Shown: piece after piece, positions 37,667-55,735 of the stretch | How the letters are laid out: the number at the start of each line of letters is the position of its first letter | Numbering within the stretch: the stretch's first letter is position 1 | Assembly: GCA_049975265.1 (NCBI GenBank) | Contig: JBNGDF010000012.1 | Location: 11,082-75,081 of the forward strand | Direction: 5' to 3' | Source of the DNA: Fidelibacterota bacterium | Lineage (GTDB): Bacteria > Fidelibacterota > UBA2242 | DNA length: 64,000 nucleotides | Notes under the pieces: model-generated | The model's input: the letters and a program-made list of their open reading frames with translations, nothing else | What the model was told of the DNA's origin: nothing | Database searches by the model: none | Position numbers and translations under genes: made by a program

Positions 37667-37708
37667 TTGCATTTTAAAGTGGCGAATGATATAATTGTAT
37701 AGACAATT
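37667..37708 (+). promoter_or_regulatory. Promoter with overlapping operator 1 (etfB)
   Basis: TTGCAT-17 nt-TATAAT; AATTGTATAGACAATT at 37693-37708. Confidence 0.8.
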
Positions 37709-37888
37709 AATTTTAATACTCTTTTTTACAATGCTATTTAGAAAAATGAATACTGCATTTTTGGATGGAAAGTTTTAATTTCGGTTTGTCCAAATTCCGT
37801 CCGGTCGGGTACGGAGAACAGGGCTGGTAAAAATTCCAATGTAAATCCGAAGCGCCGCTGCGATAGGGCTGATAATCAGGGAGTAAGC

Positions 37889-38686
37889 ATGAAAATCATT
37901 GTACCGATTAAACAGGTTCCGGAAACCAGCAATGTCAGGATGGATCCGGAGACCGGAACCATGATCCGGGAGGGGGTCGAGCCGATCGTCAACCCGCTGG
38001 ATCTCTATGCCATTGAGGCAGCCATTCGGCTGAAAGAGCACGCCGGGGGTGAAATCATCGCTCTCACCATGGGACCGCCCAGTGCCCGCAAAGCGCTGAT
38101 GGAAGCAATTGCCATGGGTTGTGATGATGGCATTCTGCTCAGTAACAAGAAATTTGCCGGAGCGGATACCTGGTCAACATCATATGTTTTGTCGCAGGCG
38201 ATTAAAAAAATCGAAAAGTTTGACCTGATCCTCTGTGGCGAGCGCGCCACCGATGGTGATACCGGACAGGTGGGACCCGGAATCGCCGCCTGGCTGGATA
38301 TACCCTTTGCAACGTATGTCAGTAGGATTCAGGAGGTCCGTAACGGCAACCTGTACTGTGAACGGATGATTGAAACGGGGTATGAAGAGTTGGAGGTACA
38401 GCTGCCCTGCCTGCTGACTGTGGTCAAGGAGGTGAATTTTCCGCGCCTGCCGACATTAAAAGGAAAATTGCGTTCGAAAGCGGCGGAGCTGGAAACCTGG
38501 GGTCCGGCAGATATTGACGCCCAACCGGATTTTCTGGGTTTAAAGGGATCGCCGACCCGGGTAGTAAAAATTACCAAGCCGCAGGTGGCACGCCGGGGCA
38601 AAATTGTTGCGCCGAAAGATGAAAAGGAGTTAATGTCAGCGGTGGACGGACTGATTGAATTTTTAAAACAGAAAGAGATTGTCTGA
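37889..38686 (+). CDS. etfB: Electron transfer flavoprotein beta subunit
   Basis: IKQVP, NPLD, GADT, DGDTGQVGP, GLKGSPT. Confidence 0.95.
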   Translation: MKIIVPIKQVPETSNVRMDPETGTMIREGVEPIVNPLDLYAIEAAIRLKEHAGGEIIALTMGPPSARKALMEAIAMGCDDGILLSNKKFAGADTWSTSYVLSQAIKKIEKFDLILCGERATDGDTGQVGPGIAAWLDIPFATYVSRIQEVRNGNLYCERMIETGYEELEVQLPCLLTVVKEVNFPRLPTLKGKLRSKAAELETWGPADIDAQPDFLGLKGSPTRVVKITKPQVARRGKIVAPKDEKELMSAVDGLIEFLKQKEIV

Positions 38687-39723
38687 TGGATAGCAACGCA
38701 GCATATCAACATGTCTGGATTCTGGGTGAGCAGGAAAGCGGAATTATCCGGCAGGTCTCCTTTGAGCTGCTGAAGCGGGGGCGCGCTTTGGCGGATAAAC
38801 GCAGGTCACAGCTGGTGGCGGTTATCCTCGGTGATCGCTTTGAAGACCGTGAGTTGGCGCGCCTGTTTCACTACGGTGCCGACCGGATTATCGTTGTGCA
38901 GCGACCGGAGCTACGCTACTTTTTGCCGGAACCCTATACCAGGGTTCTGAAGACATTGATTAATAAATACCGCCCGGAAATTCTGATAGCCAGCGCCACG
39001 ACAACCGGAAGAACAGTAGCGCCGGCGGTGGCGGTTGTCTGTCATACCGGGCTGACCGCCGACTGTACCGAGTTGGATATCGATCCGGAAACGGGTAATC
39101 TGATTCAGACCCGTCCGGCGATCGGGGGCAATATTCTGGCGACCATCAAAACGCCGGCACACCGTCCTCAAATGGCAACGGTCCGGCCTCACTCCAACAA
39201 ACCACTGGAACCGGATGAGAGTCGCCGCGGCGAAATCATCCGGGAAACGGTGGAAGCAACGAGTCTGCAAAGCCGGGTCAAGCGGCTTGGATTTCGGGAA
39301 AACAGCGAAGCCGTGGGCAATATTCAAGACGCCGAAATCATCATCGCCGGCGGGAAGGGTTTCAAGAAAGATGAAAATTTCCGCATGGTGCGGGAACTGG
39401 CGGAGCTGTTTCCCGATGGTGCGGTCGGCGCAAGCCGGGATGCAGTAGACCGTGGTTGGGTCAGCTACACGCACCAGATCGGGCTGAGCGGGAAGACCGT
39501 CAGTCCGCGCTTCTATCTGGCAGTCGGGATATCGGGTTCAGTCCAGCATCTGGCGGGGATTAAGACGGCTGAAAATATTGCCGCCATCAATAACGATCCG
39601 GAAGCCCAGATTTTTCAGGTGGCGGACTACGGAATTGTCGCGGATTTATTTGAAGTATTACCACTGATCAAAGAGAAGCTGGCAGCCCTGAATCTGAAAC
39701 AGGAAGCGGAGGTGAGTGAATGA
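38686..39723 (+). CDS. etfA: Electron transfer flavoprotein alpha subunit
   Basis: GLTADCT, RPAIGGN, GASR, QIGLSGKTV, GISGSVQH. Confidence 0.95.
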   Translation: MDSNAAYQHVWILGEQESGIIRQVSFELLKRGRALADKRRSQLVAVILGDRFEDRELARLFHYGADRIIVVQRPELRYFLPEPYTRVLKTLINKYRPEILIASATTTGRTVAPAVAVVCHTGLTADCTELDIDPETGNLIQTRPAIGGNILATIKTPAHRPQMATVRPHSNKPLEPDESRRGEIIRETVEATSLQSRVKRLGFRENSEAVGNIQDAEIIIAGGKGFKKDENFRMVRELAELFPDGAVGASRDAVDRGWVSYTHQIGLSGKTVSPRFYLAVGISGSVQHLAGIKTAENIAAINNDPEAQIFQVADYGIVADLFEVLPLIKEKLAALNLKQEAEVSE

Positions 39724-41144
39724 ATCCGTCCAGTTATAAGCGTGTTGATTCCGGAATAGTGGAAATGTTAAAAAAAATTGTCGGTCCCCGTTTTGTGCTT
39801 TGGGATGAGCCGGATAAAATGGAGCCTTATTCACATGATGAGGTGGTGGACAAGCGCTACATGCAGATGCCCGAAGTGGTGGTGAAACCGCGGACTGCCC
39901 AGGAGGTGGCTCAGGTGATGCAGTTAGCCAGCCGGGAAAATATACCGGTGACGCCCCGTGGTGCCGGGAGCGGGCTTTCCGGCGGTGCTGTCCCGGTGTA
40001 CGGTGGAATTTTACTATCTGTGGAGCGCATGAACAGCATTTTGGAAATTGATAAAGCCAATATGGTGGCGGTTCTTGAGCCGGGTGTGATTACCAATGAC
40101 CTGAATTTACTGCTGGCGGAAGAGGGGCTCTTTTTTGCGGGCTACCCCATGAGCGTGGAGAGCTGTTTTATCGGCGGGAATGTGGCGGAAAATGCCGGGG
40201 GCGGGCGAGCGGTGAAATACGGTGTCACCGGACGCTATATTATCGGACTGGAGGTGGTTACGCCGGAAGGTGAGATCATCCAGCTGGGCGGCAAACGGGT
40301 CAAGGATGTGGTGGGTTACGACCTGATTCATCTGATGGTAGGCTCCGAAGGGACGCTGGGGATTTTTACCAAAATTTTTATTAAACTGTTGCCGCTGCCG
40401 TCAAAGCGGGTAGACCTGCTGGTCCTGTTTAAAGATATCGCCAGTGCGGTGGCGCTGGTGCCGAAGATCATCGCTTTCGGCAAAATCATTCCCACCGCTG
40501 TGGAATTTATGGATAAAACCGCCGTTGAACTCGCCTGCCGCTATTTAAATGAACAGCTCTATTCGCAGGACGTGGGAGCCATGCTGCTGATCGAGCTGGA
40601 CGGCAACGACGAGCCCGGGCTGGAGCGGGAATATGAAGTGATCGGTAAAATGTGCGAAGAAAACGGCGCCATTGAGGTCTATGTAGCCGATAACGCCACG
40701 ACTCAGGAGCGGGTCTGGGCGGTGCGGCGCAATGTACCGGAGGGAATCCAGACCTTTTATCCCGTTAAAAGTTCCGAGGATTTGGTGGTGCCCATTGCCA
40801 ACCTGCCGGAAATATTGCCGCAGATCACTGCCATCGCAAAAAAGCACGATGTCATCATCCCCTGCTTTGGTCATGCGGGCGACGGGAACATACATACCAC
40901 GATTGTTAAGAAACCGGAAATGTCAATGGACAGGTGGCATGAAGTTCAGGAGACGGTCCGGGTGGCGCTGTATCAGATGGTGCTTGCCAAAGGGGGCACG
41001 ATCAGCGGTGAGCACGGTATTGGTCACAAGCGGAAAAAATATCTTTCCATGGCACTCGATCCGGTAACAATCCGGCTGATGAAGCGAATCAAGCAGGCTT
41101 TTGATCCGGATCATATTCTGAATCCGGGGAAAATGTTTGAATAG
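39720..41144 (+). CDS. FAD-linked 2-hydroxy-acid dehydrogenase (GlcD/LctD family)
   Basis: RGAGSGLSGG, NAGG, KYGVT, GSEGTLG, GHAGDGNIH, GEHGIG, LNPGK. Confidence 0.88.
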   Translation: MNPSSYKRVDSGIVEMLKKIVGPRFVLWDEPDKMEPYSHDEVVDKRYMQMPEVVVKPRTAQEVAQVMQLASRENIPVTPRGAGSGLSGGAVPVYGGILLSVERMNSILEIDKANMVAVLEPGVITNDLNLLLAEEGLFFAGYPMSVESCFIGGNVAENAGGGRAVKYGVTGRYIIGLEVVTPEGEIIQLGGKRVKDVVGYDLIHLMVGSEGTLGIFTKIFIKLLPLPSKRVDLLVLFKDIASAVALVPKIIAFGKIIPTAVEFMDKTAVELACRYLNEQLYSQDVGAMLLIELDGNDEPGLEREYEVIGKMCEENGAIEVYVADNATTQERVWAVRRNVPEGIQTFYPVKSSEDLVVPIANLPEILPQITAIAKKHDVIIPCFGHAGDGNIHTTIVKKPEMSMDRWHEVQETVRVALYQMVLAKGGTISGEHGIGHKRKKYLSMALDPVTIRLMKRIKQAFDPDHILNPGKMFE

Positions 41145-41155
41145 CGAAAAAAAAC

Positions 41156-41197
41156 TTGCAGTTTTGAAACTGTTTAAGTATAATTGTATATACAATT
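41156..41197 (+). promoter_or_regulatory. Promoter with overlapping operator 2 (regulator gene)
   Basis: TTGCAG-17 nt-TATAAT; perfect palindrome AATTGTATATACAATT at 41182-41197. Confidence 0.85.
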
Positions 41198-41219
41198 GAA
41201 TCAGGAGTAAGATCCAGCC

Positions 41220-42317
41220 ATGATCATCGATCGAAACAGCCCGGTACCGCAGTATTTTCAGTTGCAAACCTGGCTACGGGAGCAGATTGAGCAGAGGGTT
41301 TTTAAACCGGGCGATAAGATACCGACGGAAGAGGAGCTGGTCCATATCACCGGTCTGGCGCGGGCAACGATTCGTCAGGCGATCAGCAATCTGGTGAATA
41401 TGGGCTATCTGACCCGCAAACGCCGTCTGGGAACTTTTGTCACCCGGCGCTCAAACAGGACCCAGCCTAAAAACATCATCGGTGTTTTGGTGCCCGACAT
41501 CCGGAGCGGCTATACACCGGAATTAGCCCGGGGTGTGGAAGATGCCGCCGCCAACAATAAACTGAGTACAATTTTGTGTAACACCGATGACCTGTTTATC
41601 AAGGCGGCTTTTCATGCGGAGCGTCTGCTTGAGAGCAATATCGGCGGGGTGATCTTTGTCCCCACCGCCGCTTCCGACGAAAAGAATCTGCAGATTATTG
41701 ACAAATTTCGCAAGCGGAATATCCCCGTGGTGCTGGCGGACCGCATCATTCCGAACACCGATGTGGACTATGTGACAACCGATAATTTTCACGGCGGTTA
41801 CCAGCTGACCAACTATTTAATCAAAAAAGGGCACCGCAGGATCGGCATCACGCTCAGCACGCTTTTCAGCACCGAGCGGCTGCGTTATGAAGGGTACCGC
41901 AAAGCCCTGGAAGAGGCGGGAATTTCACCCGAATCCGGCTGGATCAGACTGCATGACGGACCCTTTACAGAAAAGCATTATCAGCAGGTCGCCAAAGATC
42001 TGTTGAGCCATGACCGTAAAATCAGTGCCATGTTCGCTGGGCATGACCGGATTGCCTATGTTGTTTATTCGGTTGCCCAGAAATTAGGCATAAAAATTCC
42101 GGTGGATCTGTCGATCGTAGGCTATGATGATTTACATTCCACCTGCTCCCATCTGATTTCCCTGACGACCATGCATCAACCGATTTATGAGATGGGGCAG
42201 GAGAGTCTCGGAATTCTGGTTTCCAGGATGAATGGTGACAACGGGGGGCTCAAGCGACTGGAGTTAAAATCCAATTTGGTGGAACGCAACTCGGTCGTAC
42301 GCTTTAAGAATTCCTGA
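41220..42317 (+). CDS. GntR wHTH + LacI-type sugar-binding domain regulator (AraR architecture)
   Basis: PQYFQL...PTEEEL...RATIRQA...GTFV; then DNFHGG, GHRRIG, DLSIVGYDD, LTTMHQP. Confidence 0.9.
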   Translation: MIIDRNSPVPQYFQLQTWLREQIEQRVFKPGDKIPTEEELVHITGLARATIRQAISNLVNMGYLTRKRRLGTFVTRRSNRTQPKNIIGVLVPDIRSGYTPELARGVEDAAANNKLSTILCNTDDLFIKAAFHAERLLESNIGGVIFVPTAASDEKNLQIIDKFRKRNIPVVLADRIIPNTDVDYVTTDNFHGGYQLTNYLIKKGHRRIGITLSTLFSTERLRYEGYRKALEEAGISPESGWIRLHDGPFTEKHYQQVAKDLLSHDRKISAMFAGHDRIAYVVYSVAQKLGIKIPVDLSIVGYDDLHSTCSHLISLTTMHQPIYEMGQESLGILVSRMNGDNGGLKRLELKSNLVERNSVVRFKNS

Positions 42318-42347
42318 ATCCTAAAAAAAGTGAAAAGACATTAGTAA

Positions 42348-43361
42348 ATGAAAAAAATGATCAACATCGGATTGATTGGCACCGGACGGTTGGGGAGTAT
42401 GTATGCCGAATTTCTGGTTCAGCATGTCCCGCAGGCAAATCTAATTGCGGTGGCGGATTTGATTCCGGAGCGTGCACAAAAGATAGCGGAACAGTACGAT
42501 ATTCCGAAATGGTACGACAGTCATCAAGGGGTCAATCGCGATCCGCAGGTAGATGCGGTGGTGATTACGGCGACCACCGGCAACCACAAGGAGATTGTCA
42601 TTGATGCCGCCCGGGAAGGCAAACCGGTTTTCTGTGAAAAGCCGATGACGCTGAATCTTGACGATGCCCGGGAGATGAAGCGGGCGGTTATAACGGCGGG
42701 TGTTTTTTATCAGCAGGGTTATATGCGCCGGTTTGATAAGGGATTTTCGGCGGTAAAGCGGAAAATCGAAGAGGGTGTCATCGGAACGCCGGTGGTGTTT
42801 CGCGGATCATCCCGGGACCCCTTTCTGCCGGAGTTAGATTATCTTTTACCTGAGAACAGCGGGGGTCAGATTCTGGATATGGCGATTCATGATTTCGATA
42901 TTGCCCGCTGGTATATGGGTGATATTCGGTCGGTCTATACGATTGGCGGCGTGCTGGCATTTCCCGAAGTCAAGTCTACCGGTGATACCGATAATGTGGT
43001 CATGGCATTTACTTTTCAGTCGGGCGCACTGGGCGAAGTTGATATCAGTCGCAACGGCGTCTATGGCTATGATATCCGGGCGGAAGTACTGGGAACCAAA
43101 GGGACCCTAAAGGCGGGTTATCTGCGAGATACGCCTATTCTGGTAATGAACAAAGAGGGCGTAACCCACGACGTCGTACCCTATTTCCCGGAACGCTTTT
43201 GTGAAGCCTATGTCGCCCAATTGAATAACTATCTGAATAATCTTCGTAATGCAACCGACCCGCTGATCACCATTGACGACGGCATCAGTGGTTTGCAGGT
43301 CGCTGTCGCTGCGACAGACTCCCTGAAAAAGGAAACCGCCGTTAACGTTGCCGATTATTAG
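42348..43361 (+). CDS. iolG: Inositol 2-dehydrogenase (Gfo/Idh/MocA)
   Basis: IGTGRLG, CEKP, RRFD, SRDP, DMAIHDFD, YGYDIRAEV; context. Confidence 0.85.
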   Translation: MKKMINIGLIGTGRLGSMYAEFLVQHVPQANLIAVADLIPERAQKIAEQYDIPKWYDSHQGVNRDPQVDAVVITATTGNHKEIVIDAAREGKPVFCEKPMTLNLDDAREMKRAVITAGVFYQQGYMRRFDKGFSAVKRKIEEGVIGTPVVFRGSSRDPFLPELDYLLPENSGGQILDMAIHDFDIARWYMGDIRSVYTIGGVLAFPEVKSTGDTDNVVMAFTFQSGALGEVDISRNGVYGYDIRAEVLGTKGTLKAGYLRDTPILVMNKEGVTHDVVPYFPERFCEAYVAQLNNYLNNLRNATDPLITIDDGISGLQVAVAATDSLKKETAVNVADY

Positions 43362-43377
43362 AATTTTTTTTGAATAT

Positions 43378-43428: not shown

Positions 43429-44616
43429 ATGAGAACCGTGACTCTTTTTGCCGACTGGGACCCTAAACCGGAGTTCAAGCTGGGTAGTAAGGATATCGAG
43501 GGTAAATTAACCTATCTTGGGAGCAAAGTCTGGCGGCATCCCCACGTGGAGATTGTGGAGAAAGAGATTCCGAAACCGGGTCCTTCGCAAGTGCTGATTG
43601 AAGTCCGGGCTTGCGGGATTTGTGGGAGCGACGTGCATATGCTGCAGACGTCGTCGGACGGCTACATTTTTTATCCGGGACTGACTGCTTTTCCGGCGAC
43701 GCTGGGGCATGAGTTTTCCGGAAAGGTGATTCAGGCGGGACCCCAAGCGATCAACAAGCGAACCGGTCTGCCCTACGAGGTGGGCGAGGCGGTCTGTTCT
43801 GAGGAGATGATGTGGTGTTCCTACTGTCGTCCCTGCGCCGACGGATTTCCCAATCATTGTGAGCATTTGCAGGAGATCGGTTTTTCCTGCGATGGTGCCT
43901 ATGCCAAATACATCGCCGTGGATGCCCGCTATCTCTGGAGCATTGAAGATTTACGACCAATTTACGGTGAGGAAAAAATGTATGAGCTGGGCAGCCTGGT
44001 GGAGCCGACGTCGGTGGCGTATAATGCGGTCATCGAACGGGGCGGCGGCATTCGACCAGGCGATAATGTGGTGATCATGGGCAGCGGTCCGGTGGGCATC
44101 GCTGCCTGTGCTGTTCTAAGTCGAGCCGGTGCGGCGAGAGTGATCATTTCAGAACCCTCCCAATCCCGGCGGGATATGGCGATTGCCATGGGTGCCACAC
44201 ACGGCATTGATCCGACCAGAGTGAATGCCGCCGATGCTATCCTAAATATTACCAATGGTGAGGGCGCCAAGCTGATTCTCGAAGCCACCGGTCTGCCCAG
44301 CGTGGTCTGGCCGGATGTGGAGAAGATTATCTGGGAAGGCAAAACTCTGAACACGACGGTGGTCATCGTAGCCCGGGCGGACGATAAAATTCCTATGAAC
44401 GGTGAAGTGTTCCAGGTCCGCCGGGCAAGTGTGGTTGGCGCCCAGGGGCATTCGGGACACGGAACCTTTCCACGGGTGATCAGCTCCATGGCAAGTGGCA
44501 TGGACGTATCGGGATTGATCACCAAGCGCATCAAGCTGGAAGAGGTACCGGAAAATCTGGTGCTGTTGCAAACCAATCGGGAAGAGGTGAAAATTACCGT
44601 TTTCCCTGAAGAGTAA
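43429..44616 (+). CDS. iolM: scyllo-inosose 3-dehydrogenase
   Basis: WDPKPEFKLGSKDIEGKLTYLGSKVWR N-terminus as in Thermotoga IolM; CGICGSD, GHE, GAQGHSGHGTFP. Confidence 0.92.
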   Translation: MRTVTLFADWDPKPEFKLGSKDIEGKLTYLGSKVWRHPHVEIVEKEIPKPGPSQVLIEVRACGICGSDVHMLQTSSDGYIFYPGLTAFPATLGHEFSGKVIQAGPQAINKRTGLPYEVGEAVCSEEMMWCSYCRPCADGFPNHCEHLQEIGFSCDGAYAKYIAVDARYLWSIEDLRPIYGEEKMYELGSLVEPTSVAYNAVIERGGGIRPGDNVVIMGSGPVGIAACAVLSRAGAARVIISEPSQSRRDMAIAMGATHGIDPTRVNAADAILNITNGEGAKLILEATGLPSVVWPDVEKIIWEGKTLNTTVVIVARADDKIPMNGEVFQVRRASVVGAQGHSGHGTFPRVISSMASGMDVSGLITKRIKLEEVPENLVLLQTNREEVKITVFPEE

Positions 44617-44649: not shown

Positions 44650-45744
44650 ATGGAAGGCTGGCTGAAAACAGATCGAACCGACCTGAGTTTTGAGGACACG
44701 TCGGTCGGACGGCTGAAGAAGAAAATCTGGGAAGCTTCGGAAGATGAAATTTCCGAAATTCTGGAAAACTACGGAATTCCAACACCCTCGGAACTGGCGA
44801 AACCGGGTACCTATGTGCAGACAACCATTCGACAGAAAGTGGTGGAAAACCGCAAGAAAAATGATATTGTCTTTGTGCCTATTGGCTGTACCGAGCTGCA
44901 TGGTCGGCACACGGTCACTGCTTTGGACTCATTTATGGTGACCCAGATTCTGGAGGGTGTCCGCCGGGATTCGGTGAAAAAGGGCACGCCGGTGAATCTG
45001 GTCTGGAATCCGCTGAATTATGGCGGTCATCCCCATCACCATATCGGCATGCCGGGCACGATTCACATTGAGGATGAAGTGCTGAAACGGGTGCTGATTG
45101 ACGTCATGGTTGGTCTCTGGAATGACGGATTCCGTAAAATCATTCTGGTAAACAATCATGGTCACTCCTGGCTTCTGGAGGCGGCGATTCAGGAATTGCA
45201 GAAAACCTGGAATCTGCCGGGCATTTTCCGCACGATTGACTGGCATCGCGCCGTACGGGAGTTTTTCCGCACCAGAGATAGGGGCGGCGATTGGGAGGAT
45301 AATTTTTTCCATGCCGATGAAGCCGAAACCTCGGTAATGCTGCTGTTGGCGCCGGAATATGTCGAAATGGCGCTGGCGGAAGAGACCAGGGTAGAGGGCT
45401 ATCTGCCCGATGGTCACATGGATAAAGCGGTAGATCCCTTTGCTAGACCCTGCCGCTGGTCGGAGGGACAGGGGCACGGCCCGATGGAGATCAATTCGAT
45501 TCCCGAAGGGGTGGTAGGTCGTCCCACGATCGCCGAAGCCAGAAAAGCCCGGCGCACCATCGCTGCAATTTTGTCCTATCTGACCCTGTTATGGGAAGAG
45601 ATTCTGGAAGCCTATCCCGCCGGCACATTTCCGCCGATTGAAAAGACCACCATGCGAACGGAAAAGGAGATGGAACCGTACCTGAAGGAGCCTTTTACTG
45701 AGGGTTGGCGTCCAATCTATGCCATTCGCAAGATGGGATTGTAA
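44650..45744 (+). CDS. iolN: 3-dehydro-scyllo-inosose hydrolase (creatininase family)
   Basis: PIGCTELHG, HPHHHIGMPGT, NNHGH, HADEAETS; directly follows iolM. Confidence 0.88.
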   Translation: MEGWLKTDRTDLSFEDTSVGRLKKKIWEASEDEISEILENYGIPTPSELAKPGTYVQTTIRQKVVENRKKNDIVFVPIGCTELHGRHTVTALDSFMVTQILEGVRRDSVKKGTPVNLVWNPLNYGGHPHHHIGMPGTIHIEDEVLKRVLIDVMVGLWNDGFRKIILVNNHGHSWLLEAAIQELQKTWNLPGIFRTIDWHRAVREFFRTRDRGGDWEDNFFHADEAETSVMLLLAPEYVEMALAEETRVEGYLPDGHMDKAVDPFARPCRWSEGQGHGPMEINSIPEGVVGRPTIAEARKARRTIAAILSYLTLLWEEILEAYPAGTFPPIEKTTMRTEKEMEPYLKEPFTEGWRPIYAIRKMGL

Positions 45745-46817: not shown

Positions 46818-46861
46818 TCCACGGAATGGTTTTTCCGGTTCCGGTAATTAGGAATGGAACA

Positions 46862-47674
46862 ATGAAGCTCAGTATAGTAATCTCGACCCAGCCGGCGACA
46901 TTCAATGCCCTGGCTTATAAAGGCAAAGTTGCAGAGAACATTGAAAAGGTGCGAAAACTGGGTTACGATGGCGTCGAACTGGCGGTTCGTGATCCGCGGC
47001 TGCTGGATTTGGCGGTGGTGAAGGCATTGACCATTGATACCGGATTTCCGGTGTCCGCCCTTGGAACCGGACAGGCTTTCGGCGAAGAAGGGCTGTCATT
47101 TTCCAGTCCCGATCGGACAATTCGCAGGAAAGCCATTGAAAGGATTAAATCGCACATTGATGTCGCCGCGCAGTTAAACGCAATTGTGATTATTGGATTG
47201 ATTCGCGGCATTGTGAAGCCGGGAGATGATCCGGAGCAAGCCGAGGCATGGATTATTGAGGCGCTCGATACGTGTGCCGCTGTTAATCCGGATGTCAAAT
47301 TGGTCATTGAGCCCTGTAATCGTTATGAAGCCAATACGGTCAACACGGTTGGCGAGGGCATGGCTCTGGTGGACAAACTGGGACGAGCAAATGTCGGTCT
47401 GCTGCTGGATACCTTTCATATGAATATCGAAGAGCCGGATATGCTGGAAAGTATTGAGAATGCCGGTCAGCGGTTATTTCACTTCCACATCGCCGATTCC
47501 AACCGCTGGTATCCGGGCGCCGGTCATATTGATTTTCAGGCGGTTTGCTGGAAGCTGTCCCAAATCGGTTATGCGGGCTTTCTGTCCGCTGAGATTCTGC
47601 CCTTACCCGATGCCGATACCGCCGCCGAAATGACCATTCATACAATGCGAAATTTGGAAAACATAAAAAAATAA
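46862..47674 (+). CDS. iolO: 5-keto-L-gluconate epimerase
   Basis: MKLSIVIST...F.ALA.KG, VELAVRDP, GTGQ, EPCNRYE, DTFHMNIEE, HIADSNR. Confidence 0.88.
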   Translation: MKLSIVISTQPATFNALAYKGKVAENIEKVRKLGYDGVELAVRDPRLLDLAVVKALTIDTGFPVSALGTGQAFGEEGLSFSSPDRTIRRKAIERIKSHIDVAAQLNAIVIIGLIRGIVKPGDDPEQAEAWIIEALDTCAAVNPDVKLVIEPCNRYEANTVNTVGEGMALVDKLGRANVGLLLDTFHMNIEEPDMLESIENAGQRLFHFHIADSNRWYPGAGHIDFQAVCWKLSQIGYAGFLSAEILPLPDADTAAEMTIHTMRNLENIKK

Positions 47675-47703: not shown

Positions 47704-48747
47704 ATGGAAATGATGAATGCGCTTGTTTTTAAGAAAGTCGGACAGATTGACTTTGAATGGATTCCAATTCCGAAAGTGACCGAGCCGAACCAGGTTCTGG
47801 TCAAAGTCGCCGCCTGTGGGATATGCGGCTCCGATGTTAAAATTCTCGAGGGTAAACATGCTTACCGGGAAAATACGGTACTGGGACATGAGTTTTGCGG
47901 AACGGTGGTTGAGGTCGGCAATAGAGTCACGGCTGTCAAAAAGGGCGACTGGATTGCCCTGGATAACAACTCCCGCTGCGGACTGTGTGAATTTTGCCGG
48001 ATGGGTATGAGCAGTCAGTGTGTGGAATTAAAGAATCGCACCCTGGGAGTTTTCAGGAACGGCGGTTTTGCGGAGTACACCCTGGCAACCGAGGACGTCT
48101 GTTTCAAAATTCCCGATACCATTGATGAAATTCTCGGGACTCAGGTGGAAACCCTTGGCACCGTGCTGAACGGAATGAATACCGTCCAGATGCAGTGTTA
48201 CGATTCGGTGCTGGTGCTGGGATGTGGTCCGATTGGTTACCTTTTTACCGCCATTGCCAAGAATGTTGCCGCCGAAGTTGCCGTAACGGAAATTGATCCC
48301 TTCCGGTTCAAAGTTGTGGAAAAGTTCGGAGTACCTGTTTTTAATCCCGATGAGTGTGATCTGGAAGCTGAGGTCATCAAACTCACCAATGGCAAGAAGT
48401 TTGATATTGTCATAGATGCGGTGGGGACCCAATTGGAGAATGCCCTGAAATATGTCACACCCGGCGGAAAAATTCTGGCATTCGGGATGGACAGCAGCTG
48501 TAAAGCGACGATTGATCCCTATATCGTTACCCGGAATGCGATTAAGATTCTGGGAACCTACATCGGGCAGAATACCATTTTGCCGGCGATTAAGCTCTAT
48601 CGAACCCATAAGCTGGAAATGGACAATTTTTTCACTGAAACACTGCCTCTGAGGGATGGTCCGGGTGCGTTTAGAAAGCTCGGTCTGGATTTAAAAACGC
48701 TGCAACACCTACCCAAACGGGCGATGAAGATTGTACTGAAGCCGTGA
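47704..48747 (+). CDS. Zn-dependent polyol/sugar-acid dehydrogenase (MDR family)
   Basis: CGICGSD, GHEF, CGLCEFC...C, GCGPIG. Confidence 0.88.
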   Translation: MEMMNALVFKKVGQIDFEWIPIPKVTEPNQVLVKVAACGICGSDVKILEGKHAYRENTVLGHEFCGTVVEVGNRVTAVKKGDWIALDNNSRCGLCEFCRMGMSSQCVELKNRTLGVFRNGGFAEYTLATEDVCFKIPDTIDEILGTQVETLGTVLNGMNTVQMQCYDSVLVLGCGPIGYLFTAIAKNVAAEVAVTEIDPFRFKVVEKFGVPVFNPDECDLEAEVIKLTNGKKFDIVIDAVGTQLENALKYVTPGGKILAFGMDSSCKATIDPYIVTRNAIKILGTYIGQNTILPAIKLYRTHKLEMDNFFTETLPLRDGPGAFRKLGLDLKTLQHLPKRAMKIVLKP

Positions 48748-48775
48748 AAATCAAGCTCGTTACAGAGGACTATGA

Positions 48776-50128
48776 ATGAATAAAATATTACGATTTTTCG
48801 CGACCGGTAAAGATAAACCGCTGATTCAGGATCAGGCAAAAGTCGACCGACTGTACAGGCGATACCGCTTGTCGGTTATGCTGGCGATCTCGGTGGGGTA
48901 TGGTCTGGCGTATACCTTGCGATTGGCATTGAATATGGTCAAGAAGCCGATTCTGGATGCGGGAATTTTTACCCCCACCGACTTGGGGAATATCGGTTCG
49001 GCGCTTCTCTATACTTATGCCATCGGTAAATTTACCAACGGATTTTTAGCCGACCATGCCAATGTCAAACGCTTTTTTGCGTTCGGGGTATTGATGTCAG
49101 CCCTTGTCAATATTGCGATGGGTTCTTCAGCGATTCTCTGGCTTTGGATCATATTGTGGGGGTTGAACGGCTGGTTTCAGTCTTTCGGTGCGCCCACGGG
49201 TGCGGTCACGCTTTCCAACTGGTTCAGTAAATCGGAACGGGGACGTTTCTATGGAATCTGGAGTACCGGTCACAATATCGGTGAGGGCTTGACCTTTGTC
49301 GTGACGTCGGCGGTCGTCTCCTATTGGGGCTGGCGGGCTGGATTCATTGTTCCGGGAGTGTTTTGCATATTGCTGTCCGGACTGATTTATCTGGCGCTGC
49401 AGGACAAACCCCGCACTCTGGGATTACCCCTGGTAGCTGACTGGAAAAAGGATTACAGTGCTCCGCCGGATCTTGAGAAAAATAAAACCGAGCTGACCTC
49501 CAAAGCGCAGTTGCAGGTTCTGAAAACTCCGGCGATCTGGGTTTTGGGTTTCGCCAGCGCCTTTGTTTACATGACCCGCTACGCCATTAACAGCTGGGGC
49601 GTGCTCTATCTCCAGGAAGCCAAAGGCTATTCGCTGATGGAGACGGGCGCGATTCTCGGTTTAAATACGGTTGCCGGTATTTTCGGCTGTATTGTGTATG
49701 GTTTCATTTCCGACAAACTGTTCAAAGCGCGGCGTCCGCCGGTGACTCTGATTTACGGGATCATCGAGCTGACAGCGCTGTTTATCATCTTTTTCAGTGC
49801 TCCAAATCAGCCTATTCTGGTGACGGCGGCATTTGTCTGCTACGGTTTTACCATGAGTGGTCTGCTGGCTTCACTGGGAGGCTTGTTCGCCATTGATATT
49901 GCGCCGAAAAAAGCCGCCGGCGCTGCGATGGGTTTTATCGGTATTTTCAGCTATATCGGTGCCGGTATCCAGGATCAGATCAGTGGTCTGCTGATTGAGA
50001 AGGGGTGCCGGATTGTGGATGGAGCCCTGACCTACGATTTTTCGAAGGTGATTATGTACTGGATCGGTTCATCCTTCTTATCAATGATTCTGGCTGCGAT
50101 ACTTTGGAAAGCTAAAACCAGCGATTAG
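48776..50128 (+). CDS. MFS organophosphate:Pi antiporter (GlpT/UhpT family)
   Basis: YAIGKFTNGFLAD, NGWFQSFG, WFSKSERG, WSTGHNIG, PKKAAGAAMGFIG. Confidence 0.88.
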   Translation: MNKILRFFATGKDKPLIQDQAKVDRLYRRYRLSVMLAISVGYGLAYTLRLALNMVKKPILDAGIFTPTDLGNIGSALLYTYAIGKFTNGFLADHANVKRFFAFGVLMSALVNIAMGSSAILWLWIILWGLNGWFQSFGAPTGAVTLSNWFSKSERGRFYGIWSTGHNIGEGLTFVVTSAVVSYWGWRAGFIVPGVFCILLSGLIYLALQDKPRTLGLPLVADWKKDYSAPPDLEKNKTELTSKAQLQVLKTPAIWVLGFASAFVYMTRYAINSWGVLYLQEAKGYSLMETGAILGLNTVAGIFGCIVYGFISDKLFKARRPPVTLIYGIIELTALFIIFFSAPNQPILVTAAFVCYGFTMSGLLASLGGLFAIDIAPKKAAGAAMGFIGIFSYIGAGIQDQISGLLIEKGCRIVDGALTYDFSKVIMYWIGSSFLSMILAAILWKAKTSD

Positions 50129-50146
50129 AAATCGGAGAAAAATTTT

Positions 50147-51028
50147 ATGAAACATTATGACACAGTAATTTTTGGGAATTATACCAGCGATACCATCATT
50201 ACCAAACAGGGCAGCCGCCATGTAGACGGTGGTGGTTTTAATTACGGCGCCCATGCGGCGGTGGGGCTGGGATATAAAGTAGCCGCCGTGACACGGTTGG
50301 CGAAAGCCGACAGCCATGTGATCAGCATGCTGGAAAACGCCGGAATTGATGTTTTCCCCACCTTTACGTCGTCATCCACCCAGATGGTTCTGGACTACCC
50401 GACGGATAATCCCGACGAGCGGATTCTGACCTGTCCGCAAACCGCTGGCAGTTATACGATTGACCAGTTTCGGGATTTTCGCGCCAAAGCCTGGCTGATC
50501 AACACCTCCGTCAGGGAGGAGGCGCCGGTGGAGCTGGTAGAGTATCTGCATGCTCAGCCGGGACTGCTGGTGGCGGACGCTCAGGGCTTCGTCAGAGTGC
50601 GTGGTGAGGGCGGTCGTCTGATTCATGCTGAATGGCCACAAAAGCGGCATGTGCTGAGCATGCTGAACATTCTGAAAGCCGATATCAAGGAGGCGGAGTC
50701 ACTGACCGGTGAGAGCGATCTGAAAAAAGCGGCGAAGATTCTCAACGAGTGGGGACCTGCCGAAATTGTTCTGACCCATCGCAGCGGTATCCTGGTGTAC
50801 GCCGATGGGAAATATTATGAAGCCGGATTTTTCCCGGAAAAGCTGATCGGTCGCAGTGGGCGCGGTGATACCTGTATTGCCTTGTATGCCGCTAAGCGAC
50901 TATCGGCGCCGCCGGAAGAAGCAATTATCTGGTCGGCGGCGGTGACGAGCCTGAAAATGGAAGCGGACTCGCCCTTTTTAAGACCGCTCGGCGACGTTGA
51001 GAAACTCATCGAAAGGAGATACCGATGA
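50147..51028 (+). CDS. iolK: PfkB-family kinase resembling Thermotoga myo-inositol kinase
   Basis: ADAQGFVRV, EAESLTG, GRSGRGDTC, AAVTSLKM; context. Confidence 0.75.
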   Translation: MKHYDTVIFGNYTSDTIITKQGSRHVDGGGFNYGAHAAVGLGYKVAAVTRLAKADSHVISMLENAGIDVFPTFTSSSTQMVLDYPTDNPDERILTCPQTAGSYTIDQFRDFRAKAWLINTSVREEAPVELVEYLHAQPGLLVADAQGFVRVRGEGGRLIHAEWPQKRHVLSMLNILKADIKEAESLTGESDLKKAAKILNEWGPAEIVLTHRSGILVYADGKYYEAGFFPEKLIGRSGRGDTCIALYAAKRLSAPPEEAIIWSAAVTSLKMEADSPFLRPLGDVEKLIERRYR

Positions 51029-51918
51029 ACAGGGGCAATACAATTTTAAGAAAGAGTTCCAGAACTGTCTTTATGGCGATTGTACTGGCGTTGATGCTGG
51101 TAATCCCGCTGTTCAATTGTTCGGTTGAAGAGCCGGTCTCCTTTATTGTCGCCCAGGATCAGCGGTATAAAGCCACAGAGGAGTATCACCACCCAGAATA
51201 CTTTATGGGAGCATTGCTGGCGATTAAAGAGGTCGGACCGGGCGACTTCATGCTCAGTCCGGGCGATCTGGACCCGATGTATGCCACCCGGGAGCTGGTA
51301 GCGGAAATTCTCGGTGCGGATTATCCCTGGTATCCGGCGGTGGTCAACCACGACATGGAGGATCCGGAAACTATGGCCTATTTTCGGGATTATAACCGCA
51401 ACGGGAATTCCCTGCCCCATATCGTCCGCAGTGGTCCGCCGGGCTGTGAGGAGACCACCTACTCTTTCGAAATCGGTGACTGTCATGTGGCGGTCATCAA
51501 CGTCTATTATGATGGGAAATCTGATGTGGGTACCGATGGCGATGTGGTTCCGGAGCTGCTGGAATGGCTTGAGGAGGATCTCAAAAACACAGATAAGCCC
51601 TTTATTTTTGTCGCCGGGCATGAGCCGTTGGTGGCGCAGCCGGATATGGATAATGGTCGCGTTCGGCACCAGGGCGATTCGCTGGATAAATATTTTCGCA
51701 ATGCCTACAAGCTGCGGGAGCTGCTGAAAAAATATAACGTTCAGGGAATTTTCAACGGGCATTCCCACGGCTCTTCGGTTGCCAAGGTCAATGGTCTCTG
51801 GCAGCTGGATGCCGGGCACGCCTACGGGTTGGAAAGAAAAACCCCGGAGCGAATGTACTGCTCCAGGGCACCAATTTCGGTGCCACCACCGACCGAACCG
51901 GTTATTTTTGTATTCTGA
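51025..51918 (+). CDS. Metallophosphoesterase lipoprotein, C-terminus probably truncated
   Basis: Signal peptide with Cys; QD, PGDLD, NHD, GHEP, GHSH. The tail after ~51850 is an off-frame read of the TBDR gene. Confidence 0.78.
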   Translation: MNRGNTILRKSSRTVFMAIVLALMLVIPLFNCSVEEPVSFIVAQDQRYKATEEYHHPEYFMGALLAIKEVGPGDFMLSPGDLDPMYATRELVAEILGADYPWYPAVVNHDMEDPETMAYFRDYNRNGNSLPHIVRSGPPGCEETTYSFEIGDCHVAVINVYYDGKSDVGTDGDVVPELLEWLEEDLKNTDKPFIFVAGHEPLVAQPDMDNGRVRHQGDSLDKYFRNAYKLRELLKKYNVQGIFNGHSHGSSVAKVNGLWQLDAGHAYGLERKTPERMYCSRAPISVPPPTEPVIFVF

Positions 51919-54500
51919 ATGTACCGGTGGGTACCTATACGGTGATGGTCTCGTATGTAGGATATGATGAGTATTCGGAGGCGGTGACGATTGGGGGATC
52001 GGATGAGCGGGTGACGCTCAATGTGGAACTCAGTCCCCGGAGTATTGAGATGGGTGAAGTACTTGTCACCGGTCTGCGCCAGGGACAGGCGAAAGCGCTG
52101 AGTCAGCAGAAATCGGCGGAAAGTATTAAGAATGTCGTAGATGAAGAGCAGATGCAGCTCTTTCCCGATATGAATTCTGCCGAGGTTCTGCAGCGCATTC
52201 CCGGGGTCTCGATCACCAGAGATCAGGGCGAAGGGCGCTACGTGCTGGTAAGAGGTACCTCACCGCGTCTGAATTCCACATCCGTCAACGGTGTCAAGAT
52301 TCCATCACCGGAAGGTGGTGACCGCAGTGTCATGCTGGATGTCATTTCCGCCGATAATCTGTCCGGAATTGAAGTGACGAAAGCCATTACACCGGACATG
52401 GACGGCGATGCCATTGGTGGCGCCGTCAATCTGAAAACCAAGAGTGCACTCGACTATCCCGGTAAAGTTCTCAGTGGAACGCTGGGCGGCGGCTACAACA
52501 ATCTGGTTGGTAAGGGCAATTTTCAGGGGGGTCTGAATTACGGGGATCGCTTTGGTGCTGACAACCATATCGGATTGATGCTTAGTGGCAGCTTCCAGCG
52601 CGCCAATCGGGGCTCCCACAACAACGAGATGGATTGGGGCGATGTGGATGATCCCAGCGGCGGAGAGTATGAATGGGCGCTGAAGACTCTGGAACTGCGG
52701 GATTACGTGATCAGACGGGACCGCATGACCCTGTCCGGAAATCTGGATTACATGATTAGCGAGGGCAATAAGTTTTACCTGTCCGGCATGTTTACGAACT
52801 ACAGTGACGTGGAGACCCGTCGCGCTATGGTCATTGATCCCGATAATGCTGAATTCTACAATACGCCGACCAATAGTCCCGAAACGGCATTTGCCTCGGA
52901 AATCAAGGACCGGACCCAGACCCAGATGCTGTATAATTTCATTGCCGGCGGCGAGAACCAGTTTGCCAAGTTGAAAATGGACTACTATGTCTCCTACGGA
53001 TATGCTCAGGAGGAAGAGCCGGATAAAATCGAGTATGCCTTCGAACTGGATGAAGAGCCGGAGGTTAACCTGGATATATCCGATCGGGACCTGCCATTAT
53101 GGAATATTGCCGGTCTGGCTGAGGGCTATGAATACGATCGGGCAAATTATGAGTTTGATGAACTCGAGGCGGACACAACCAAGACCACCAACCGTGACAT
53201 CGGCGCCGCACTGAATTTTGAAATACCCTATAGTCTGGCTGGCTATCAGGCGAAATTGAAGTTCGGTGGGAAAACAACGCTGAAGAAGAAAGATCGCGCT
53301 GAAAATATCTGGGAATACGGCTGGGAAGGCGATGCTGATGTTACGATGGACCAGTTTAATGAACCGGAAAGAGATAAATTATTTGGCGGTGATTATGTCA
53401 GAGTTCTGTCTCCTGACCCGGGAAAGGTCAGAGACTGGTTTATAGAAAACCGGGACAGTGGTCTGTTGGAAGGTGAGCTGTTATTGGATGATACTTACGG
53501 TGCCACCTATGAAGCGACGGAAGATGTCTATGCCTACTATGCCATGACTACGGCAAATCTGGGTCGGCTGATGCTGCTGGGTGGTTTCCGGCACGAGATT
53601 ACGAGGATCGATTATCTGGGACATGAAGTGATTTTTAATGAAGACGGTGACTTTGAACAGGTTCTTGACAGAGAAAATGAGAAGACATTGTCCCATATTC
53701 TCCCGATGGTCCATCTGCGATATCAAGCGACTGAACGAACCAATCTGAGATTGGCGTTGACCACCGGCATTGCGCGACCGGATTACGAGACGCTGGTTCC
53801 CTACAAGCTAATCTACCGGGAAGATGAGGAGATGGAGATCGGAAATCCGGACCTGGAGCCCACCACATCGGTGAATTTTGATCTGCTGGGCGAGCACTAT
53901 TTCCAGAACATCGGTATCCTGTCCGGTGGTATCTTTATGAAGTCGCTGGATAAGATCATCTACCCCTTTCAGTATGAAACGGAATCGGATGATCCGAATT
54001 ACCCGAAATACGATGTCGAAACATGTTTTCAGGGAAAAACCGCCAACCTGTTCGGACTTGAGGTACACTGGCAGCAACACCTGACCTTTTTACCGGGATT
54101 TCTGAAACATATCGGCATCTATAGTAATTATACCTACACGACATCATCAGCAACTGTTGGAGAACGTGAGGATCTGCCCCTGGCAGGTCAGTCGGCAAGT
54201 ATGGCAAATTTTGCCCTGAGTTATGACAAGGGTGGCTTCAGCGGTCGAATAAGTATGAATTATCACGGTGCATATCTGTCTGAATTAGGCGAAGAGGATG
54301 GCGAAGATATTTACTACGACGATCATGTTCAGTGGGATTTCTCTGCCAGCCAGAAACTGGTCGGCGGTCTGCAGTTCTATGTGCAGGCAGTCAATCTCAA
54401 CGATGCCTATCTGCGGTACTATATGGGTGAGACCAATCGTCCAATTCAGCGGGAATCCTATTCCTGGTGGCTGAATACCGGCGTGAAGTTTGAGTTGTAA
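51843..54500 (+). CDS. TonB-dependent receptor, N-terminally truncated (no signal peptide)
   Basis: Frame open from PGANVLLQGTNFGATTD (carboxypeptidase-regulatory-like domain); plug LQRIPGVS...DQGEGRYV...KAITPDMDGDAIGG; C-terminal GVKFEL. Confidence 0.9.
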   Translation, partial: PGANVLLQGTNFGATTDRTGYFCILNVPVGTYTVMVSYVGYDEYSEAVTIGGSDERVTLNVELSPRSIEMGEVLVTGLRQGQAKALSQQKSAESIKNVVDEEQMQLFPDMNSAEVLQRIPGVSITRDQGEGRYVLVRGTSPRLNSTSVNGVKIPSPEGGDRSVMLDVISADNLSGIEVTKAITPDMDGDAIGGAVNLKTKSALDYPGKVLSGTLGGGYNNLVGKGNFQGGLNYGDRFGADNHIGLMLSGSFQRANRGSHNNEMDWGDVDDPSGGEYEWALKTLELRDYVIRRDRMTLSGNLDYMISEGNKFYLSGMFTNYSDVETRRAMVIDPDNAEFYNTPTNSPETAFASEIKDRTQTQMLYNFIAGGENQFAKLKMDYYVSYGYAQEEEPDKIEYAFELDEEPEVNLDISDRDLPLWNIAGLAEGYEYDRANYEFDELEADTTKTTNRDIGAALNFEIPYSLAGYQAKLKFGGKTTLKKKDRAENIWEYGWEGDADVTMDQFNEPERDKLFGGDYVRVLSPDPGKVRDWFIENRDSGLLEGELLLDDTYGATYEATEDVYAYYAMTTANLGRLMLLGGFRHEITRIDYLGHEVIFNEDGDFEQVLDRENEKTLSHILPMVHLRYQATERTNLRLALTTGIARPDYETLVPYKLIYREDEEMEIGNPDLEPTTSVNFDLLGEHYFQNIGILSGGIFMKSLDKIIYPFQYETESDDPNYPKYDVETCFQGKTANLFGLEVHWQQHLTFLPGFLKHIGIYSNYTYTTSSATVGEREDLPLAGQSASMANFALSYDKGGFSGRISMNYHGAYLSELGEEDGEDIYYDDHVQWDFSASQKLVGGLQFYVQAVNLNDAYLRYYMGETNRPIQRESYSWWLNTGVKFEL

Positions 54501-54537
54501 TTCAGTCTCCGGTGCGTTAAAATTGTGGAAGCGGAAA

Positions 54538-54570
54538 TCTGCAGGGAGTCCACCGGGGACTCCCTGCAGA
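54538..54570 (+). other. Perfect 14-bp-stem hairpin between TBDR and phytase
   Basis: TCTGCAGGGAGTCC-ACCGG-GGACTCCCTGCAGA; no U tract. Confidence 0.8.
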
Positions 54571-54601
54571 GGCTGAAATTCGAAATTTGAATAAGGAGAA
54601 A

Positions 54602-55735
54602 ATGATGCGCCTGAAGATAATTATGCCCCTATTGATATTGGCAGTGATCGGACTGCTTATTGTTGATTCCTGCGGCAAAAGGACGAAGCTGATTTGCGGC
54701 GCGGTCAAGCCTGTCGCAGTGACCGAGCAGACCAAACATGATACCGACGATCCGGCGATCTGGATTCACCCTGATGATCCGGCGCGGAGCCTGATCATTG
54801 GTACCGATAAAGATAAAGACGGTGCGCTTTATGTGTACAATTTAGAGGGTAAGATTCTGCAGGATAAAGTAGTCCGTAATCTGAAACGTCCCAACAATGT
54901 GGATGTGGAGTATGGGTTGATGTTGAACGGTAATCCGGTGGATATCGCCGTTGCCACCGAACGAATGGCGAATAAAATCCGGGTCTTTGCCCTGCCGGAC
55001 ATGAAGTGTATTGATAACGGCGGCATCCCGGTTTTTGTGGGTGAAAAACTGCGGGCGCCCATGGGTATTGCGCTATATAAACGTCCCTCGGACGGAGCGA
55101 TCTATGCCATTGTCAGTCGTAAAGAGGGACCCACGGATGGAACGTACCTTTGGCAGTACCTTCTGAAAGATGATGGCAGTGGTAATGTCGCTGGTGAGCT
55201 GATTCGGAAATTCGGGAAATACAGTGGAGTCAAGGAGATCGAAGCCATCGCTGTGGATGATCCGCTGGGCTATGTCTATTATTCCGATGAACAGTATGGG
55301 ATTCGGAAATATTATGCCAATCCCTCTGTCCCGAATGCGGATCAGGAGCTGGGGATCATTCATGCTCAGGACTACTGGGAAGACAACGAAGGGATTTCCA
55401 TCTATCCACTTGACAGTAAGACCGGCTATATTCTGGTTTCGGATCAAAGCGCCAATCGTTTCCGGATTTATACCCGCGAGGGCACACCGGCGATTATCGA
55501 TCCCGGGGATCCCGAGGATAACGAGCCGGCGAAGCCGCATCAGCACAAGCTGGTGAAAATTGTCAATGTCTCAACGAATAACAGCGACGGATCGGACGTG
55601 ACGAATGTCAATCTCGGAGCAAAATTCCCCCATGGCATGTTTGTCGCCATGTCCGATAACAGGACATTTCAGATTTACAACTGGGACGATATCATTGGCA
55701 GAAATGTTCTGAGCACCGCCGACTACGGTAAGTGA
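54602..55735 (+). CDS. Beta-propeller (alkaline) phytase, probable lipoprotein
   Basis: DTDDPAIWIHP, IIGTDK, NNVD, EIEAIAVD, DNEGISIY, SDQ, SDG; AAGGAG RBS; DSC lipobox-like. Confidence 0.93.
   Translation: MMRLKIIMPLLILAVIGLLIVDSCGKRTKLICGAVKPVAVTEQTKHDTDDPAIWIHPDDPARSLIIGTDKDKDGALYVYNLEGKILQDKVVRNLKRPNNVDVEYGLMLNGNPVDIAVATERMANKIRVFALPDMKCIDNGGIPVFVGEKLRAPMGIALYKRPSDGAIYAIVSRKEGPTDGTYLWQYLLKDDGSGNVAGELIRKFGKYSGVKEIEAIAVDDPLGYVYYSDEQYGIRKYYANPSVPNADQELGIIHAQDYWEDNEGISIYPLDSKTGYILVSDQSANRFRIYTREGTPAIIDPGDPEDNEPAKPHQHKLVKIVNVSTNNSDGSDVTNVNLGAKFPHGMFVAMSDNRTFQIYNWDDIIGRNVLSTADYGK

Follow-up and report, generated by a model that had tools for sequence, protein, structure and literature searches.

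The 64,000-nucleotide stretch of a Fidelibacterota genome analyzed here (contig JBNGDF010000012.1 of assembly GCA_049975265.1; below, the window) carries, between positions 37889 and 55735, a locus in which a beta-propeller phytase and a TonB-dependent receptor are joined to a Thermotoga-type inositol pathway (an IolG-like protein, IolM, IolN, and IolO), an OPA-family transporter, and a ribokinase-family kinase. The locus is real and widespread, and the window copy is partly decayed. For relatives with an intact copy, the best explanation, to which we assign a probability of about 55%, is that phytate-derived inositol phosphates would be used as carbon through ester/phosphate (Pi) antiport, a pyrophosphate (PPi)-type kinase working in reverse, and IolGMNO. 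Phytate would be trimmed by the phytase and by exported phosphatases; an inositol monophosphate would enter through the OPA-family transporter in exchange for phosphate, and the kinase, run backwards, would convert inositol phosphate plus Pi to inositol plus PPi. Inositol would then enter the IolG-IolM-IolN-IolO series, with tagaturonate passing onward via UxaE, mannonate oxidoreductase, a LarA-type epimerase, and Gnd, all encoded on another contig. The PPi could be consumed by membrane pyrophosphatases or a PPi-type phosphofructokinase, which would save part of the ester-bond energy, and both IolG and the consumption of PPi would draw the kinase reaction toward inositol. Every substrate in this scheme, like the direction of the kinase, is a prediction from sequence. 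The original prediction, made from the letters of the window, had already proposed phytate as a carbon and energy source. Linkage in relatives, the neighborhood of the transporter clade, the operator, and the tagaturonate route all speak for that proposal; the window genome itself probably cannot run the outer half of the scheme.

The linkage of phytase with iolMNO is not an artefact. In G014, a 96% complete relative from another genus of the same family as the window genome (labeled G000; 2.86 Mb, 95% complete, with the locus on its contig C12), the whole gene order is intact on one contig, and overlapping parts of it occur in G002, G022, and G035. Sediment metagenome contigs also map onto the locus, one of them ~98% identical over 4.7 kb. 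Among 301 genomes of the phylum searched for beta-propeller phytase and IolN, 22 had the former, 21 the latter, and 11 both, against ~1.5 expected if the two were independent (related genomes are not independent samples). Seven of these 11 co-holders, from five families, have phytase and IolN on one contig within 11 kb; in the other four, all fragmented assemblies, the two genes lie on separate contigs. A second sample, picked by the transporter alone, comprised the best 80 of 550 transporter relatives, corresponding to 79 loci (because several searches led to some of the same loci, their counts are not additive). Genes of the iol type were present in 52 of the 79, as iolM/N in 21 and as canonical iol genes in 31, never both. 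Beta-propeller phytase was found in 28, and phytase, receptor, kinase, and iolM/N stood together in 10 (KSB1, Ignavibacteria, and Acidobacteriota). The transporter's closer relatives with a name include records of Neomarinimicrobiota and KSB1. The original prediction had suggested synteny in relatives as a check, and there both phytase and receptor proved to be linked to iolMNO.

The transporter has been called an OPA antiporter on the basis of the window alone. It is indeed an OPA-like protein of the major facilitator superfamily (MFS) with the phosphate relay residues, and it scores below the cut-off of every named subfamily (UhpC, 302 against 564; PgtP, 277 against 408; GlpT, 260 against 633; UhpT, 176 against 497). 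The GlpT residues Y38, Y42, R45, R269, H165, Y76, Y270, and Y393 are retained and K80 is K or R; the R45/K80/R269 relay and H165 are features of the OPA family. By contrast, W138, E299, Y362, and K46 of GlpT are substituted across the clade, with small residues at W138, E299, and Y362 that may leave room for a ring. The K80-R45-R269 relay has been tied to phosphate-ester transport (PMC12552596). In a phylogenetic tree, the proteins of the 79 loci and the window protein separate from GlpT, PgtP, and UhpC and form a branch of their own with 55 to 83% identity; support is 0.985 for the clade plus one Plesiomonas MFS protein and 0.24 for the clade alone. We found no clade member with a tested substrate. 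The clade nearly always sits amid inositol, phytase, or phosphoesterase genes, and members without iol genes in view are mostly beside phosphodiesterases, phosphatases, and mannosidases. The transporter is thus predicted, from residues and surroundings, to exchange inositol monophosphate for phosphate.

Several of these surroundings deserve separate mention. In L041, L043, and L044, the transporter occurs with GH92 and GH38 mannosidases, and the set formed by these loci and L050 carries glycerophosphodiesterase and other phosphoesterase genes; such mannosidase-linked clusters may degrade mannosylated inositol lipids. Other phytase-type folds accompany the clade at two loci: in Pleomorphomonas (L099:7681-12700), the transporter lies between a monophosphatase and a histidine phosphatase, and in L073 a PTP-like phosphatase (7227-8030) precedes it. 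In L030, L031, L034, and L037, the transporter is tandemly duplicated as two divergent copies.

The kinase provides the second line of evidence. Its closest solved structure is TM0415 of Thermotoga maritima (E 8e-40); the iolK-like assignment first given to it missed a PPi-specific signature. TM0415 uses PPi, not ATP, and five residues form its signature (PMC5931981). All five donor residues (K171, F221, R229, R232, and M266) are found in the window kinase together with the RXGRGD motif. K171, R229, R232, and D234 are present in it and in 40/40 relatives, position 266 being M, L, or V, and D11, Q141, and R145 of TM0415 are also kept in the window kinase. By these residues, the window protein is likely a PPi-dependent kinase of the TM0415 group. 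Its acceptor side is another matter: the TM0415 residues I76/N78/S89/L116 are M/L/L/S here, so that the pattern of the inositol 1-phosphate [Ins(1)P]-forming TM0415 is not matched. The L78/L89/S116 combination (L/L/S) is found in 38 of the 40 kinase relatives and is identical to that of homolog 49. PDB entry 7e4l is a TM0415 variant with N78L and S89L, i.e., residues native to the window kinase, and this variant is reported to shift the product to Ins(3)P. Homolog 49, from Levilinea saccharolytica, used PPi and formed three inositol monophosphates, none of them Ins(1)P, and inositol binding by TM0415 was weak, with a Km of 12 mM (PMC5931981).

What ties the kinase to phosphate removal is the gene it trades places with. 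In a six-frame search of the 79 loci, using profiles built from the kinase and monophosphatase genes of the loci, the kinase turned up in 40 loci and a gene of the inositol monophosphatase family in 20 different ones, and each profile gave one further, weaker match. The slot directly after the transporter holds the kinase in 40 loci and a monophosphatase-family gene in 17, and four loci end there. A search from the kinase side, which found the kinase in 27/301 genomes, gave the same arrangement: at ≥60% identity, the kinase clade directly follows the transporter in 10/10 places with upstream DNA (four more are at contig ends), and more distant kinases follow TRAP or ABC importers. The L/L/S kinase is also present in 25/28 phytase loci. 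Among the carriers with canonical iol genes, phytase, transporter, and kinase is Povalibacter uvarum (L076), whereas Luteimonas cucumeris (L084) and a Caulobacter sp. (L062) have the monophosphatase type. In 11 loci, the kinase lies beside the canonical iol route, seven of these having their own iolC; it therefore neither replaces IolC nor needs IolMNO intermediates, and as a substitute for IolC it can be rejected for the L/L/S clade. The simplest reading of this gene pattern is that kinase and phosphatase would share one job, that of stripping phosphate off the imported ester. The original prediction gave no enzyme for the last phosphate after import and overlooked this exchange between a PPi-specific kinase and a monophosphatase.

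Kinases of this family also occur in other settings. In L136 and L137, an L/L/S-type kinase lies beside a TRAP transporter, not an OPA transporter. A second PPi-type clade (L143-L155, L046, L063, and L122), with acceptor residues closer to those of TM0415, has an SSS transporter and a hydrolase of the metallo-beta-lactamase fold as neighbors. Several of its loci contain iolG/D/E/B and a transaldolase-like gene, with no iolC in view, and here a kinase that stands in for IolC is conceivable.

The PPi and the tagaturonate that the scheme would produce both have candidate outlets. Five close genomes all encode a membrane pyrophosphatase, and none of the five a family I or II soluble pyrophosphatase; the window genome has in addition a phosphofructokinase with the PPi-type motif. 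IolD over its cut-off was found in 0/5 of the close genomes, and UxuA in 1/5; the window genome has a match to neither. UxaE, by contrast, is present in 5/5. Contig C8 of the window genome encodes UxaE, Eda, a mannonate oxidoreductase and Gnd, the last two scoring above their cut-offs, and a LarA-family protein, which scores below its cut-off. They form part of a pectin/hexuronate-like locus (G000:C8:41400-86900; L110-L112) with eda, a kdgK-like gene, uxaE, kduI, uxaC, TRAP-like genes, mannonate oxidoreductase, gnd, and the LarA-family gene. This locus is a likely sink for tagaturonate. The C8 genes resemble the galacturonate genes of T. maritima (PMC3750489). Inside the transporter loci themselves, uxaE was found in 5/79.

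The window locus comprises the following features, as located by open reading frame, domain, NCBIfam, and PDB searches:

37693..37708, no strand: operator 1, a 16-bp palindrome that overlaps a TG-n-TATAAT element seen by eye
37889..38686, + strand: etfB, electron transfer flavoprotein beta (PF01012)
38686..39723, + strand: etfA, electron transfer flavoprotein alpha (PF01012 and PF00766)
39720..41144, + strand: FAD-linked 2-hydroxyacid dehydrogenase of the LctD/GlcD family (best PDB match LctD 7qh2, E 3e-105)
41182..41197, no strand: operator 2, one mismatch against operator 1, just 5' of the regulator gene
41220..42317, + strand: repressor with GntR helix-turn-helix (HTH) and LacI-type sugar-binding domains (PF00392 and PF13377)
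42348..43361, + strand: iolG-like inositol dehydrogenase (TIGR04380, 332 bits against a cut-off of 355, just under)
43429..44616, + strand: iolM, scyllo-inosose 3-dehydrogenase (NF041097, 493 bits against 450)
44650..45744, + strand: iolN, 3-dehydro-scyllo-inosose hydrolase (NF041098, 314 bits against 245)
45825..46817, + strand: lipoprotein resembling purple acid phosphatases, interrupted at 46260-46262 by an in-frame TAG
46826..47674, + strand: iolO, 5-keto-L-gluconate epimerase (NF041099, 360 bits against 300); from the ortholog start, the likely start is 46862
47704..48747, + strand: Zn-dependent dehydrogenase (domain and PDB searches)
48776..50128, + strand: MFS transporter in an unnamed clade of the OPA family, predicted to exchange inositol phosphate for phosphate
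50147..51028, + strand: ribokinase-family kinase of the TM0415 family, predicted PPi dependent, L/L/S acceptor type
51025..51918, + strand: calcineurin-like metallophosphoesterase, truncated; homology stops at 51848 and an out-of-frame tail follows
51843..51848, no strand: junction of a deletion (6-base overlap), lacking 665 bases against the nearest strain and 1888 against G014
51846..54500, + strand: TonB-dependent receptor remnant (TIGR01782, 514 against a cut-off of 310); first in-frame GTG at 51927
54587..55735, + strand: predicted beta-propeller phytase, intact, with an N-terminal signal (PF02333, E 4e-46)

All named genes from etfB to phytase lie on the + strand in the order given, as first described for this window, and the Thermotoga-type identity proposed for IolM, IolN, and IolO held up for all three against the NCBIfam cut-offs. 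By sequence, the product of the last gene is a beta-propeller phytase, for which Ca-dependent phytate hydrolysis is predicted; its PDB matches (4/4) are phytase structures (E ~1e-31). The Zn-dependent dehydrogenase alternates with extra Gfo/Idh genes: among the 21 iolM/N loci, the eight that have it carry zero or one Gfo/Idh gene, and 11 of the other 13 carry two or three. It may thus act as a second dehydrogenase, for another inositol isomer. A place similar to that of the dehydrogenase linked to electron transfer flavoprotein (ETF) is occupied in three loci by an unrelated FAD oxidase. The window genome has a second etfB-etfA-FAD dehydrogenase trio (G000:C8:34097-37371), 65 to 71% identical to that of the window and directly after an Nqr-like operon. 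A G+C-rich inverted repeat noticed by eye lies between the receptor and phytase genes (54530-54565).

Control of the locus appears to involve its own repressor. The palindromes at 37693 and 41182 are the only sites in the genome within one mismatch, and both lie in this locus; at up to three mismatches there are six sites, not above shuffled sequences (3, 3, and 6), which leaves the two near-perfect sites as the exceptional ones. Of 30 related loci scanned, eight have a site within one mismatch of the operator, located ahead of first genes or regulators. This points to a regulon that would include the ETF module, under the GntR-LacI-type protein as repressor. A promoter scan returned 25 sites against 20.2 ± 4.5 by chance, and the TG-n-TATAAT candidate was not among them. 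No match to an E. coli-type Pho-box pattern was found between the genes of the locus (a weak test; the DNA 5' of the receptor is deleted here, and the search did not cover PhoB).

In the window copy, three genes are damaged. The acid phosphatase reading frame is interrupted by the in-frame TAG, where the same-genus ortholog has TGG and a single 355-amino-acid frame; recoding of TAG was considered and rejected, TAG being the ordinary stop that terminates the FAD dehydrogenase, iolG, and OPA genes here. The intact ortholog matches TRAP/PAP structures in PDB searches. The metallophosphoesterase matches its relatives only to residue 278 of ~402, and the TonB receptor begins mid-domain, its first ~55 codons having gone together with the start and signal peptide, both of which are present in G014. 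The truncation of the one and the beheading of the other share the junction at 51843-51848. A contig from metagenome run X1 (~98% identical) spans both sides of this junction, with the same 6-base overlap and 665 extra bases between; a run X3 contig continues into the phosphoesterase at that point, and the 1888 additional bases of G014 include a second phosphoesterase. The missing 665 bases may reflect a true loss, toward which the 6-base overlap leans, or an assembly error; the exact strain was not found in the metagenome runs searched (best share 0.50). A chimeric assembly of two unrelated loci can be rejected, given the full order in G014 and the X1 contig across the junction. The original prediction spoke of two lipoprotein phosphatases; a canonical lipobox is present in the acid phosphatase only, and both genes are broken. 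The window genome thus probably keeps the inner half of the system (transporter, kinase, and IolGMNO) plus the phytase and has lost the receptor and both phosphatases.

The scheme must be weighed against three other readings, and a number of observations weigh against it. The state of the window copy itself is one, because with both phosphatases and the receptor broken this genome probably cannot run the outer half as originally described. On the tree, transporters of monophosphatase-type loci nest inside those of the kinase type, and the swap therefore amounts to some two to four events, not 60. For the iol-linked monophosphatase, the scores against SuhB and HisN are equal and under both cut-offs, and an inositol phosphate is its putative substrate. 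A related kinase in L119 has as neighbors an ABC importer of the SBP_bac_6 type and a HAD hydrolase. The reverse kinase reaction is slightly uphill and near equilibrium under standard conditions, at about +4 to +8 kJ/mol. A family I soluble pyrophosphatase is present in 18/35 kinase holders, compared with 14/15 phosphatase holders (a count by marker type that covers 50 of the 60 marker-bearing loci), and in 11/12 proteobacterial kinase holders; PPi saving as a general rule is hence unsupported. The first of the other readings keeps importer and carbon pathway as proposed and lets the kinase run forward. With PPi as donor, it would phosphorylate inositol or 2-keto-inositol, the product serving as inducer, exchange substrate, or lipid precursor, and the last phosphate would be removed by a housekeeping phosphatase. 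We regard this as rather unlikely. The authors of the TM0415 study measured the forward reaction only and suspected another acceptor, and a word search of the available text returned no reverse-reaction test (PMC5931981). The window genome has two other monophosphatase-family genes elsewhere, one of which falls in a widespread clade distinct from that of the iol-linked gene, and these could perform the last dephosphorylation; inositol-1-phosphate synthase was found in 0/5 close genomes, which makes salvage conceivable, and many loci have a sugar ABC importer able to bring in free inositol. A forward kinase leaves unexplained, however, why the position behind the transporter is taken by kinase or monophosphatase and never by both, and why the kinase is placed between an ester importer and the catabolic genes of two different routes.

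The phytase side of the argument is open to two further readings, the first of which we judge quite improbable. Here the receptor, phytase, and phosphatases would be a phosphorus-scavenging unit under its own control that often adjoins an inositol operon, with use of the ring carbon as a by-product. Of the 22 phytase holders in the phylum, 11 indeed have no IolN, phytase transcription in seven loci runs away from the iol genes, PhoD genes occur in many loci, and extracytoplasmic trimming would free up to five Pi whatever the fate of the ring. In G014, moreover, no operator precedes receptor or phytase; coregulation of these two with the iol genes is putative, as is their cotranscription. Against scavenging, the receptor heads the iol run in most of the seven phytase-divergent loci, L045 has receptor and phytase inside the run before the transporter, the Pho-box pattern sought between the genes was not matched (the weak test noted above), and the antiporter would give back one Pi per imported ester. 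More improbable still, to our mind, is that the transporter naturally carries inositol phosphates derived from the head groups of lipids or from other phosphodiesters (glycerophosphoinositol, cyclic inositol phosphate, and mannosylated inositol lipids), the phytase being an accessory. This would suit the iol-less clade members beside glycerophosphodiesterases, exo/endo-phosphatases, and GH92/GH38 mannosidases, and the 51/79 loci without beta-propeller phytase within the fetched stretch. The 15/79 loci without any iol, phytase, kinase, or monophosphatase marker count against the proposed scheme. Yet kinases with the Ins(1)P-type residues of TM0415, which would fit a lipid-derived ester, belong to the other clade, whose neighbors are SSS transporters and metallo-beta-lactamase-fold hydrolases, and it is the L/L/S kinase that accompanies nearly all of the phytase loci.

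The proposed scheme of ester import and reverse kinase action shares several parts with known systems. With the T. maritima cluster TM0411-TM0416 (IolR, IolM, IolN, IolG, TM0415, and IolO) and its transporter InoEFGK, it has in common IolM/N/O and a PPi kinase of the TM0415 family; it differs in the OPA-type MFS transporter, where Thermotoga has the InoEFGK ABC importer, and in the L/L/S-clade kinase, phytase, receptor, exported phosphatases, and ETF module that it adds. Rodionova reportedly described, in 2013, the steps of the T. maritima Iol enzymes and a preference of InoE for inositol phosphate. Regulation differs too, a GntR-LacI repressor with a 16-bp operator in the window compared with a ROK-family IolR in Thermotoga (PMC3553997). 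Free inositol does not support growth of T. maritima (PMC3750489), a hint that its substrate, too, may be phosphorylated. As to the kinase, the window protein has the same five donor residues, RXGRGD motif, and D11/Q141/R145 as TM0415 and the L78/L89/S116 of homolog 49 (Nagata 2018, PMC5931981). That paper left the physiological role open, and the word "transporter" is absent from the part consulted, whereas kinases of the window type are fixed behind a phosphate-ester transporter.

The OPA antiporters GlpT, UhpT/UhpC, PgtP, and SLC37A4 share the basic phosphate relay with the window transporter, which is set apart by its position under the four named cut-offs, its own branch, and the small residues at W138, E299, and Y362. 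Pairs of a TonB receptor and a beta-propeller phytase in Shewanella and Xanthomonas are usually read as serving phosphorus scavenging. The window has the same pairing of a TIGR01782 receptor next to a PF02333 phytase; the difference is that in relatives it is joined to carbon catabolism, and that in the window genome it is broken. Mitsuokella jalaludinii likewise uses phytate as carbon via phytase, transporter, and inositol genes, but by a periplasmic phytase that yields free inositol for an inositol transporter, with no ester import, PPi kinase, or IolMNO mentioned in the available text (PMC7618129). Word search of part of a Caulobacter inositol paper found neither a monophosphatase nor a TonB receptor. 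The ring chemistry of Thermotoga, the kinase family, and phytate as a carbon source (Mitsuokella, PMC7618129) are thus already known. Our literature search, which left most subscription journals outside its reach, found no description of an OPA importer for inositol phosphates, of phytase combined with IolMNO, or of a kinase that trades places with a phosphatase in this way.

Inositol phosphates are among the chief forms in which soils and sediments store organic phosphorus, and a survey of inositol use counts the IolBCDE route, with no mention of Thermotoga in the text at hand (PMC9430895). Tentatively, and with somewhat less confidence than for the proposed scheme itself, the reading may extend further: the OPA clade would be a dedicated inositol-phosphate:phosphate antiporter in many phyla, and the orphan PPi inositol kinases would be reverse-running, energy-conserving phosphatases, replaced by a monophosphatase in some Proteobacteria. 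If true, this would name a substrate for the transporter clade and give the TM0415 kinase family the role that its discoverers left open, with the work of a phosphatase done by a reversible kinase that saves PPi. Anaerobic sediment bacteria would thereby gain a phosphate-neutral, PPi-yielding use of phytate and perhaps also of its stereoisomers.

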